Source: Eledone cirrhosa (Eukaryota). From it: DNA of 64,000 bases. Location: positions 233,244,001 to 233,308,000 of the forward strand of contig OZ024742.1 of NCBI GenBank assembly GCA_964016885.1. The letters run 5' to 3'. The notes beneath the pieces are model-generated. The model saw only the letters and a list, made by a program, of their open reading frames with translations. It was not told the DNA's origin and made no database searches. A program made the position numbers and the translations under genes. This document shows positions 30,745 to 54,251 of the stretch, piece after piece (position 1 is the first letter of the stretch; every line of letters begins with the position of its first letter).

Positions 30745-31160
30745 TAAAGGTTAAACAAGGTTCAATGAATAAATCAAAGAATGAGTTTTACAATAGATTG
30801 GAAGCACTCAACAAATTGGTTTTCCGGAGTTATTAATATTAATTCAAAATATTAACAAAATAGATATTATTGTGATCAAGTATATTTTATTATATATATT
30901 TCAGAGGTACTGAGTTAACTTCAACAGTACGTCCTCATCAGATACAATAAGATGATGCATGACATACCCTGAGATAGTAGATGGTTAAGATTCAGTCATG
31001 AATGAATCTTAACCATCTACTATGTCAGGGTATGTCATGCATCATCTTATTTTATCTGATGAGGACGTACTGTTGAAGTTAACTCAGTACCTCTGAAATA
31101 TGTATGATAAAATATACTTGATCACAATAATATCTATTTTGTTAATATTTTGAATTAATA
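30745..31160. mobile_element. Palindromic PLE-like element A (arms 30837-30994 / 31003-31160, tail 30745-30836) with a hammerhead in each arm
   Basis: Inverted arms of about 158 bp with an 8-nt spacer. CTGATGA at 31056-31062 (+) and 30935-30941 (-). (TA)n flanks. Confidence 0.85.
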
Positions 31161-31282
31161 TATATATATATATATATATATATATATATATATATATATA
31201 TATATATATATATATATATATATATATATATATATATATATATATATATATATGATATCTAAAATTATAATAATAATAATAA

Positions 31283-31447
31283 AATAATTGTTTCTACTTT
31301 AGGCACAAGGCCAGCAATTACCCAGTGCATTACTGGTACTTTATTTTATCGATGAAAGGCAAAGTCAACCTCGGCGGGATTTGAACTCAGATCGTAAAGG
31401 GACGTAACTATGCTGGAAAGCATGGCGTCCGACCCTCTACCGATATT
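31283..31447 (-). mobile_element. Major SINE
   Basis: Family core with a small internal deletion. Confidence 0.85.
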
Positions 31448-32404
31448 GTTTTTATCGTAGTTCGGAGTGTTACTAATGGTAGTCAGATGAACACACCAGC
31501 TGAAACTTCGAAGTCCCTGCCACTTTGTTTACTATTTTGACACTCTACCCACCGGTATTGAGTGCTCATTCAGTTAATGTATGATTATCTTAAATACTAC
31601 AGTATTTACAGTAATATTCATATATACATATATATACACGCACACACATACACGCACATACACGCACACACACGCGCGCGCACCCACCCACATACACACA
31701 TATATATATATATATATATATTTATGTATATATATATGTAAATATATATGTATATGTATATATATGTATATATATATATGTATATATATATATATATATA
31801 TATATATATATATATATATATATATGTGTGTGTGTGTGTGTGTGTGTGTGTGTGTGTGTGTGTGTGTGTGTGTGTGTGTGTGCGTGTATATATATATATA
31901 TATATATATATATATATTCATTTCAATAAAATTGCCTAGAAGCTAAGGAATATCAAGAGAATTTGAAGCAAAATATCCTTAAGCAAGAGACCGGCAAACT
32001 ATACAATAGAAGACATTGAATTATCTACAATGACTTGATTCCGCACGTGGTTATTACGGTTGCGGGCTTGTCAGTGACCGCTTCATGTCACCGAATGCTC
32101 TATGTCAACGCTGCTTTAGATCATAGCAATTATCTATTTACCCTATATTTTTCATTTCTACTTCCCCTCTCTACCATACTATGCACGTGGCTATTCGCCT
32201 GCATTACATGGTGCGGGTGTTAGCTTAAATTTAAGAGCAGTCAAAACCTTTTTATAGAACGCCGCATATAAATTATCATTCCAAGGGAATTGTTTGTCAG
32301 GAGCGCACCATAACAGAAGATTCATACGTTTATCTACACCAGAATCTATAACAGTATCTACTATCTCATGATATAACTCTAGAATTTATATTTAAAGATG
32401 AATA

Positions 32405-51909: not shown

Positions 51910-52880
51910 ATAATTATGCTTCTACTTTCGGCACAAGGCCAGCAATTTAAAGGGGAAGGGGAAAGTCGATTAAATCGACCTCAGTACGTTACTGGTGTTC
52001 TATTTTAACGACCCTGAAAGGATGAATGGCAAAACTAACATCGGCGGGATTTGGAATCAGAACGTAAAGAGCTGCAACTCTATGCCGTGAAACATAGTGT
52101 CCGACTCTCTACCGTTACTGTCAATCCACTGCCATTGGTTAGAAATAATAAGTTCTAATATAAGCAGAAGGCCAGCAATTCAGAGGAAGGGATAGTCTAT
52201 TAAATCGACCCAAGTACTTTATTTTATCGACCTTAGAAGAATGAAAAGTAAAGTTGACCTTGGTGGGATCTGAACCCAGAAAGTAAAAGTCCAGAACAAA
52301 TACTGCTAAGTATTTTTCTGACATTCTAACAACTCTGCCAATCTACCATACGCTAATATCATTGAAAGATCAGTTAATTGGAGTCATACCAGGTTTCCTT
52401 CCCCTTGTGTGAAGATGGATTAATAATGCTTTCTAGTATAGATACAAGACCAGTAATTTGGAGGGAGGGGAACGTTGATTAAATCGACCCCAGTACGTTA
52501 CTGTTGCTCTATTTTATCGACCCCGTAAGGATGAAAAGCAAGTTAACCTCAACGGGATTTGAAGTCAGATCATAAAGGACCGTAACTCTATGCTGCAAAG
52601 CAGGGCGTTCGGCTCCCTACCGATACTGCCAATCCACCGCCTTAAGATGGATAAATAATAACAATAATTTCTAACAAAGACACAAGACCAGCTATTTGAG
52701 GAAGGGGAAAGTCAATTAAATCGATCCTAGTGCTTGAATAGTGTTTTGTTTTGTTGACCCTAGAAGAATAAAAGACGAAGCTGACATCGGCGGGATTTGA
52801 ACACACAATGTAAAGAGCCGAAACATACCGCAACGATATTGCCAATCCAACGCTCTACTGATACTACCAATCCATCGCCC
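51910..52880 (-). mobile_element. Cluster of four major-SINE-family copies
   Basis: Cores at about 51910-52133, 52145-52350, 52420-52643 and 52660-52880. Confidence 0.85.
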
Positions 52881-54059
52881 TAGAAATTTCCAGATGTTTA
52901 AGAAGAGGCATATCCGGCTTAATGAAAACACTTCACTGTCAATTTTATTGGAAGAATTGAAAGTCAGCTCATTATTACCCACATTATTTAGAATAATCTG
53001 CAGGAGCTTGTGTTTTAGTGATTGTCCACCAGTAATTGCTTATAGACGAACGGATTTGGAATGCAACGATGTTTTTTTTTTATATTTATAAGATAAATCT
53101 TTAACTTCTGCATATATTATGACCTGAGGCATTACTGAACTGGTGTGAACGGAAGAAATATTGTGTATGAAATTTACGTTAATCGTATTTTTAGTAAGCG
53201 CCCTTGAAGGACAATAGACAGCTCAAGATTTGAATTAGAACTCCTTAGGCGTCCTAACCAATATCTTAACTCATTTTTCTGGTACTTCATATTTGAAGGA
53301 AGTGTCACGCTGAAAACTTGGTATTGTTCTCGAGACTTTTCAAAATAAACAGAAAAGCAGCATTGAACAATATAAGTTGATATTGGTTACATCGATAGGG
53401 GCAGCAAATTGTAAAACACTTAACCTGGAACTTAACTAAAGACTTTTTTTTTCTTTTATTAAAAACACATTTTTTTTCATGAATGTTTCACTCTATATTT
53501 AGTTGCTGGTCTCTTGGTAACATGTTGGTCTTACATACATTTATATCTGGATAAATTGTAAAATAAAATGTTTAATGTTTTCTTAATCCTGAGTTGTATA
53601 TACATTGTTGATATTACCTCGCTATTTACTGTTTTGAAACTATATTCATTTATATTGCTTCCAATAATAACTTCCAATAATAACCTGTTACTGTATATTA
53701 TCCATATTTACAAGTGCTTCGAATACTGTTGCAAGCCCATGACTTGTGTGTATGGATCTGATCTGTAATTACTGATAAAATCAGCGTCACTTTGCAGCAA
53801 TGCGTATACGGCAGATGTGAGTTCGAGTCCTACGAGTGACGCTGTCTATATCTTTCCGTCCAGGGGCTTTTATGCCCAATTTGTTAGACTAATTGTCATA
53901 GTAAAAAATACGTTGTAACTTCTGAATTTTCAATATATGCATATATATATATATATAAATGAAAGAAGTAGAGAAATTAATGTGAGCAAGAAGCCAACAG
54001 TATTTCATAATATATAAGTGACTATAACGTCAAAATGGAAAATAATTAACGTATATATA

Positions 54060-54251
54060 TAAATTATTCCGGGTTGAATCGGAGGTAACCACAGTAAGTA
54101 AGGTACTTAATACATAGCAGAGTATAAATGTTTTAATATAGAAGAACTTCTACAGGACTAGAACTGTTTCATTCGTGAGAAATCATCAGGCCTGCCTGAT
54201 GATTTCTCACGAATGAAACAGTTCTAGTCCTGTAGCTCTTCTATATTAAAA
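54060..54251. mobile_element. Palindromic PLE-like element E (arms 54131-54190 / 54195-54251) folded back just 5' of a hammerhead core
   Basis: CTGATGA at 54196-54202, GAAA at 54215-54218 and GTC at 54227-54229, mirrored on the minus strand. Confidence 0.8.

Follow-up and report, generated by a model that had tools for sequence, protein, structure and literature searches.

The reverse transcriptases (RTs) of Penelope-like elements (PLEs) are sisters of telomerase RT. The origin of the inverted pseudo-long terminal repeats (pLTRs) of PLEs, and of their optional tail, has been an open question. Earlier papers called the PLE cycle undefined, or offered self-priming (PMC3846280) or endonuclease resolution (PMC8557442) as its basis; in the Naiad section of the latter (Craig 2021) the tail is a 30–40 bp segment resulting from endonuclease resolution. 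According to the same source, elements of the Hydra clade are marked by a C-terminal GIY-YIG endonuclease, RW[KR] and DKT motifs, a CxCX5C linker, a hammerhead ribozyme and (TA)n targets, while Naiad PLEs have an N-terminal endonuclease and no canonical hammerhead. For the Anolis Poseidon PLE (PAc), reverse transcription was observed in vitro to begin internally at two sites, one on each side of the tail; targets are AT-rich, both strands are cut and extended, and a dimer is predicted (Frangieh 2024, PMC11167929). Here we analyzed a 64,000-nucleotide stretch of the Eledone cirrhosa genome (assembly GCA_964016885.1, contig OZ024742.1, forward strand, positions 233,244,001 to 233,308,000; "the window"), which is rich in short palindromic insertions within (TA)n runs, many of them with minimal hammerhead-type cores. 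Hydra-clade PLEs related to these insertions carry tandem hairpins at the junction of pLTR and open reading frame (ORF), and each hairpin probably binds one RT-endonuclease subunit and sets the start of target-primed reverse transcription (TPRT) about 6–7 nt on its 5' side.

Form and abundance of the hairpin

The original prediction for the window listed ten strings of the form ACTC-N-TTGAGTRC near the ends of inverted arms. All ten were present, with correct coordinates and strands (the one at 19980-20000 on the minus strand reads TCGAGTGC), and their conservation across families was borne out, as ACTC stood no more than 30 nt upstream of TTGAGTRC at 10 of 10 sites from about six independent families, compared to a background of 0.10 per site. 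The expected enrichment was also found in larger samples. Across the whole 3.0-Gb genome, the pattern RCTCYN{6,26}RTTGAGYRC had 130,032 matches and its reversed control 3,353, and 99 position-picked stretches of 10 kb (990 kb) contained 100 motif matches and 14 reversed matches, a few sites being counted twice through nested ACTC. A (TA)4 run followed within 120 nt in 65 of these 100 matches, mostly 36–72 nt downstream. As plain 4-mer enrichment in the first 40 stretches (400 kb) was weak (12/38, against 4/20 for the reversed motif and 2–11/38 for other 4-mers), this crude test was replaced by structure-aware and genome-wide tests; upper-stem pairing in the 400-kb set averaged 3.0 bp, compared to 0.58 bp after shuffling.

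The motif is a real bulged hairpin and larger than originally described. It consists of RCUC, a variable, covarying upper stem, a 2-nt bulge (mostly UU) and GAGY-RC. The proposed pairing of ACTC with GAGT forms the lower stem; the bulge lies on the 3' side of this RCTC/GAGY stem, which then resumes with family-specific pairs. Of 132 cases, 108 had A-T and 14 had G-C as their first lower pair, and sense-strand wobbles were G-U more often than A-C (31 vs. 13). The covarying upper stem and bulge, a second hairpin at the tail end and a helix joining both hairpins are absent from the original prediction. In an Rfam scan over the motif, none of the best 150 of 155 matches reached the gathering score, with only microsatellite-driven matches below threshold, and no hammerhead family was among the 150 of 155 matches listed. 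Stem III of the hammerhead, which can read ACTC-N-GAGT in Hydra elements, was considered as the motif and rejected, as it lies 40–70 nt upstream of the hairpin at the tail start (hp1).

Hydra-clade hosts and the paired RNA element

The original prediction had labeled the element at 46317 a Naiad. This identity was rejected because its endonuclease is C-terminal and a hammerhead-type core lies 43 nt before hp1; (TA)n targets, inverted pLTRs and a tail are shared with Naiads, but the N-terminal endonuclease and missing canonical hammerhead of that group do not fit the window elements. We instead assign the motif-bearing elements to Hydra-clade PLEs, because of the order of RT and GIY-YIG domain, CxCX5C, DKT, RW[KR] and the hammerhead-type cores. 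In the single ORF of the window copy the RT precedes the C-terminal GIY-YIG domain, and the linker reads CNCRNKSNC (44056-44739) and is kept in homologues. The RWK/DKT region was lost by truncation in this copy; RWR and DKT are present in a longer copy of the family (L081), and RWK/RWR and DKT in homologues. As to the CCHH motif, which Hydra-clade endonucleases lack, no conserved cysteine pair was seen by eye in the GIY-YIG core, judged on these elements alone, and the N-terminus resembles, by eye, Hydra-1_Obim and Ajap. A Pfam scan gave no matching model for the RT or the endonuclease of the ORF, and the domains were identified by eye. Both the hammerhead-type core in the pLTR (pattern only) and the (TA)n insertion site are present. 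The 3' region of this family (family H), at 44740-46200, is unusually long (about 1.4 kb) and very AT-rich, and its copies measure 3.2–4.4 kb vs. less than 3 kb typical of the clade; a copy of a repeat resembling short interspersed nuclear elements (SINEs), at 44833-45000, interrupts it.

Unrelated families were originally thought to share one trans-acting enzyme class. This holds only in part. Family H (46317 and 19980), the 30804/48876 family (seen at locus L227) and the 34243 family each have their own Hydra-type ORF; for the last, a sister subfamily with hp2 (the second hairpin) and such an ORF was found at L277. Family F occurs in tandem as an ORF-less monomer of 257 nt that contains both hairpins (L113), and family G is a monomer of about 553 nt, of which the right arm of the window insertion spans about 1.1 turns. 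F and G have no ORF after hp2 and would have to be mobilized in trans.

At full-length pLTR–ORF junctions, hp1 and hp2 both precede the ORF start. The tail end (site B) is followed by hp2 in six families (H, F, G, L107, L227 and L277), and in autonomous elements hp2 ends about 15–70 nt upstream of the ATG. Genome-wide, the double-hairpin pattern had 1,847 matches vs. 160 for the control, a count inflated by a 63-nt satellite array (about 39 of the 100 matches listed). An array of this unit, at G000:C1:81256814-81259215, is made from the hp1 region of family F. A search for hp2 set up beforehand in four further window families succeeded in one, the 34243-like family. Exact hp2 patterns for the 34243-like, 54103, 39663 and 31542 families gave 0, 5, 1 and 0 matches, none of them hp2; a relaxed pattern for the 34243-like family, which itself required the hairpin, gave 268 matches vs. 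0 for the control, and relaxed patterns gave 4 matches (54103) and 1 match (39663) that were not inspected further. At L279 and L280 (G000:C1:54096352-54097789), two hp2 junctions lie inverted 1.4 kb apart, with their ORF starts facing each other.

The two hairpins are linked by a predicted, position-conserved helix, helix P, in which 24 nt after hp1 pair with 28 nt after hp2 of the same element. Among 19 of 20 candidate elements that fitted the pattern, its energy was -11.6 kcal/mol vs. -6.8 ± 0.6 kcal/mol when segments were permuted across elements (0/20,000 permutations), and the element's own partner was the best in 10 of 19. The control segment (the next 28 nt) gave no signal (p = 0.39). 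In single elements helix P is often weak. As each hairpin precedes one strand of this antiparallel helix, the layout appears pseudo-symmetric.

For elements beyond this genome, 31 homologous proteins led to 77 metagenome loci, of which 58 entered the strand test and 34, with an ORF start, the hairpin test. Judged by sequence alone, 15 of these 34 5' regions contain two motifs, nine contain one and ten none. Stem-bearing matches upstream of ORFs were exclusively sense (27 in 7.1 kb vs. 0 antisense), and seven were found in 108 kb of ORF. In 38 distinct metagenome hairpins the first upper pair was always paired (38/38), the second in 29/37 (hp1 18/18, with five pair types; hp2 11/19), the third in 23/30 and the fourth in 10/20, the last not above permutation, in a test that ignores kinship among elements. 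On a FastTree protein tree of 29 elements, whose median identity was 47%, at least six changes from C-G to T-A or back were counted at the first hp1 pair, with hairpin-pair labels assigned by eye. Position -6 of the metagenome hairpins was A or T in 35/37, and TA occupied -6/-5 in 18/37. Published consensi agree in part: in the supplement of Craig 2021 (PMC8557442), the ATG of the sea cucumber consensus Hydra-1_Ajap is preceded by both hairpins, hp1 lies close to the 3' end in Hydra-2_Ajap and in the coral consensus Hydra-2_Amil, and the motif of Hydra-1_Crog is degenerate. Among 22 GAGCACT matches in this supplement, where line breaks may hide others, four were judged by eye to lie in hairpins of this form, all in Hydra consensi; one hairpin-like TTGAGTAC passage was seen in its non-Hydra part.

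Insertion ends and their explanation

Insertion ends were mapped by aligning six natural junction copies with 190 loci (1.48 Mb), including 60 chosen by motif, 30 chosen by ORF or junction, and the window; matches below 78% identity, shorter than 35 nt or near locus edges were excluded. The tail-less end A was defined as -14 to +3 of hp1 and the tailed end B as -22 to +3 of hp2. The 318 copy ends comprised 112 A, 135 B, 30 run-through and 41 other ends, many of the last being internal repeats or subfamily mismatches. TA repeats adjoined 241 of the 247 A and B ends. Copies ended about 6–7 nt 5' of hp1 (A) or hp2 (B). Inverted arms had originally been reported to stop just before the motif, and a plot of their endpoints had been proposed as a check. 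Both the window arms and the mapped ends confirmed the observation, and the endpoints were non-random, with -7 included in the ambiguous junction interval of 74/97 A ends and 92/110 B ends. For the motifs at 31542 and 39663, no inverted arm was found.

Adjacent outward-facing ends of the same family almost always combined one A with one B end (72 AB, 2 AA, 0 BB; 72/74 AB). In 20 larger insertions of family H, some of them poorly covered, the A arm was longer in ten and the B arm in four, and both were similar in six. Arms were more alike within an insertion (97% identity in family H) than across insertions (90%), and the same tendency was seen in families F and G.

A second hammerhead class, inserted in (TA)n but without the RCTC/GAGY hairpin, was observed in the window at 40240-40460 (-) and 54340-54500 (+) and at L022, L041, L221 and L244. 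Some 60 nt separate its two ends, and all 12 outward pairs were A+B. L287 and L290 encode a canonical GIY-YIG of PLE type together with a Cys-rich linker.

The suggestion of a shared cis signal at the arm and tail ends, most likely for RT binding or initiation, is supported. In the likely cycle, each hairpin would dock one RT-endonuclease subunit, helix P would give hp1 and hp2 a pseudo-two-fold symmetry suited to a dimeric protein, and both strands of the (TA)n target would be nicked. Each nicked 3' end would anneal to the UA/AU step at about -8 to -5 and prime synthesis, and the two cDNAs from one RNA would be joined head to head, yielding inverted arms with an hp1-containing tail on one side only. 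Because hp2 has to lie downstream of the copied part within the template, the latter would have to be a tandem read-through transcript or a hammerhead-derived circle. The ORF-less F and G keep both hairpins and would be mobilized in trans. A more far-reaching version, which we put forward tentatively and at somewhat less than even odds, is that a pseudo-two-fold RNA scaffold loads a dimeric telomerase-related RT, making each jump an obligate, programmed twin priming on one RNA; each (TA)n primer would then align on a UA step whose distance from the hairpin is fixed, much as in the alignment region of telomerase. If true, the scaffold would account for the inverted pLTRs and for a tail on one side only, and it would offer a portable tag of about 120 nt for moving cargo RNA in trans.

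The same genomic ends are predicted if the hairpins direct RNA cleavage or 3'-end formation 6–7 nt upstream and ordinary end-primed TPRT copies the two resulting 3' ends, and in the Poseidon study RNA-seq read ends coincide with the initiation sites (PMC11167929). However, two separate RNAs would, unless sorted, give AA plus BB pairs as often as AB, against the 72/74 AB observed, and the Poseidon product was unchanged by extra 3' sequence, so that initiation there is internal (PMC11167929); we therefore regard RNA processing as unlikely. Could a single priming at B suffice, with the cDNA folding back and copying itself until hp1, or a protein bound to it, blocks synthesis at A? Self-priming has been proposed for PLEs (PMC3846280), the arms are very alike, and many small insertions are near-perfect palindromes with hairpin centers. 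Fold-back requires, however, an A arm no longer than the B arm, and that either arm can be longer argues against its simple form: A is the long, often ORF-bearing arm in 10/20. The equal offset of hp2 from B would also be left unexplained. This route is already contradicted for asymmetric insertions, and overall we find it highly improbable.

A motif read as DNA by the GIY-YIG endonuclease, which would resolve a longer intermediate at two positions, would suit the inverted repeat RCTC/GAGY, the reported need of the tail for endonuclease recognition in D. virilis Penelope (cited in PMC11167929) and the attribution of the tail to endonuclease-mediated resolution (PMC8557442). A spacing of 4 to 30 nt between half-sites together with inner-stem covariation is nevertheless unlike a duplex DNA site, and the sense-strand excess of G-U over A-C and the direct joining of the ends to (TA)n also make DNA-level reading very unlikely. 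Lastly, the position of hp2 shortly before the ATG in autonomous elements would fit a promoter or translation-initiation element of the 5' untranslated region, linked to the ends only incidentally. Promoter and transcript-end functions, both named in the original prediction, are disfavored, as the ORF-less F and G keep both hairpins and both ends hold a similar hairpin offset across families of differing tail length; a 5' untranslated function with incidental ends thus seems barely plausible.

Several observations weigh against hairpin-positioned initiation as set out above. The motif is missing from ten of the 34 metagenome 5' regions and single in nine, no clear motif was seen in the viewed text of the Hydra-1_Obim consensus (PMC8557442 supplement), and the 54103 (an abundant family), 39663 and 31542 families yielded no hp2. 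Pairing at the second position of hp2 reached only 11/19 and that of the fourth pair was no better than permuted; minimum-energy folds frequently miss one of the two hairpins. The end offset varies by family, with L277-type copies fitting -9 to -7. Within the 30804 family, arm identity barely differs (94.9 vs. 94.1%), and the likeness of arms within insertions could stem from one source locus or from later gene conversion. Finally, as the second hammerhead class pairs A with B in 12/12 cases without the hairpin, the pairing rule does not need the motif; probably the A+B rule holds across these PLEs, with the hairpin pair as the solution adopted by the Hydra clade.

Features of the window and comparison with described systems

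The features of the window are compiled in Table 1. The predicted site at 41126-41139 was rejected as an independent hairpin, since it is a chimera falling on the junction of two arms; the hairpins of family G are the hp1 and hp2 listed. Motif copies beyond the ten originally listed lie at 20157, 47546, 54888 and 55938, and a broken one at 54633. More hammerhead-type cores, with no hairpin motif seen downstream, were noted at 42727-42751 (+), 35864-35887 (+), 33982-34021 (+) and 21847-21895 (-). Around the family G insertion lies a perfect 64-nt inverted repeat (40529-40592 and 41758-41821), possibly an older palindrome that received G. The SINE-like repeat is abundant (170–230 nt; 2337-2518, 26984-27150, 31268-31439, 48230-48640 and others, besides the copy in family H), and degenerate RT fragments of the long interspersed nuclear element type (Pfam RVT_1) occupy 17113-18764, 36792-37939 and 61661-63755, all on the minus strand.

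Table 1. Positions of hairpins, arms, cores and insertions in the window.
Feature	Position	Strand	Remarks
hp1, bulged hairpin, autonomous Hydra-clade family H	46317-46338	+
Remaining tail to site B beside AT repeats, family H	46339-46408	+	hp2 follows here in full-length junction copies
Minimal hammerhead-type core CTGATGA..GAAA	46232-46273	+	43 nt upstream of hp1; pattern only
Hydra-clade PLE ORF, 5'-truncated and broken	43003-44739	+	RT, CxCX5C linker, C-terminal GIY-YIG
Short inverted arm of family H insertion	42950-42996	-	ends at site A just before hp1
Palindromic insertion	30735-31161	.	B end ~30735, A end 31161
hp1 of palindromic insertion 30735-31161	30804-30830	-
Hammerhead cores of 30735-31161 insertion	30899-30941, 31056-31098	-, +
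hp1, relative of 30804 family	48876-48902	-	inverted arm end 49178
Family F insertion	33456-33650	.	A end 33456, B end ~33650; hp1 33573-33598 (+)
Family F insertion	47494-47706	.	hp1 47546-47571 (-)
Family F insertion	54794-54965	.	hp1 54888-54913 (+)
Family F hp1	20157-20182	+	TC bulge, short inverted arm
Family F-related hp1	55938-55963	+
hp1 of palindrome 34272-34590	34243-34272	-
Hammerhead cores of palindrome 34272-34590	34335-34380, 34482-34527	-, +
Family G insertion	40716-41745	.	A end 40716, B end 41745
hp1 of family G	41666-41692	+	GCTC/GAGC lower stem, GCTC..TTGAGCAC
hp2 of family G	41196-41237	+	directly 3' of internal tail-end copy; sole hp2 in window
Chimeric match	41126-41139	+	two family G arms join here; not a separate hairpin
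hp1 of short family-H relative	19980-20000	-	A arm end 20080
hp1 of palindrome 54131-54251	54103-54123	-	one lower-stem mismatch
hp1	39663-39691	-	7-bp upper stem
hp1	31542-31565	+

With this compact covarying RNA element, both insertion ends are predicted within a few bases, together with a near-absolute one-A-one-B rule. The hairpin may serve to diagnose both Hydra-clade elements and the ORF-less parasites of these elements, which account for as many as about 130,000 pattern matches here. Given the sister relation of PLE and telomerase RTs, a start placed by a hairpin, with a primer aligned over a short length of simple repeat, would, if true, be relevant to how template handling by telomerase arose. 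We found neither the paired hairpin nor the A+B rule described in the literature searched, which did not cover subscription journals and Repbase notes.

Among other retroelements, L1 twin priming and two-subunit TPRT of R2 involve two primings on opposite target strands, which lead to 5' inversion, and RNA motifs assign roles to the two subunits. Twin priming of L1 is occasional, uses arbitrary internal microhomologies and gives non-overlapping segments; here, in contrast, both starts would be fixed by repeated hairpins, and the arms overlap.

The elements share domains, linker, hammerhead and (TA)n targets with the described Hydra clade, and the hairpins occur in published consensi of that clade; no RNA element other than the hammerhead is described in the abstract, section 11 and further passages of Craig 2021 (PMC8557442). 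The tail found here contains hp1 and mostly measures about 65–100 nt, vs. 30–40 bp in that source. Non-LTR retrozymes (PMC7229834; Li 2026, bioRxiv 10.64898/2026.07.22.740005) are, like F and G, ORF-less tandem monomers sharing PLE signals, and no RT-recruiting signal is named in the parts of these papers covered. Retrozymes carry a type I hammerhead; no full CTGANGA core was seen in family F, and family G, which has a core, is longer (about 553 nt) than the 170–400 nt of retrozymes.

The closest functional parallel is PAc (PMC11167929), as here too genomic ends lie at two sites bracketing the tail. PAc, however, initiates within its ORF, in an AC-rich stem-loop and without target homology, whereas both Hydra-type starts would precede the ORF, each on the 5' side of a sequence-conserved hairpin and at a UA/AU step able to pair with the (TA)n primer. 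No one-A-one-B rule is reported for PAc in the main text and early methods, and the structures in Figures S1B and S2C may be relevant to the comparison. Compared with these systems, the paired hairpin is a conserved RNA element in a known clade, tied to both insertion ends within a few bases, and its predicted function is to place them.

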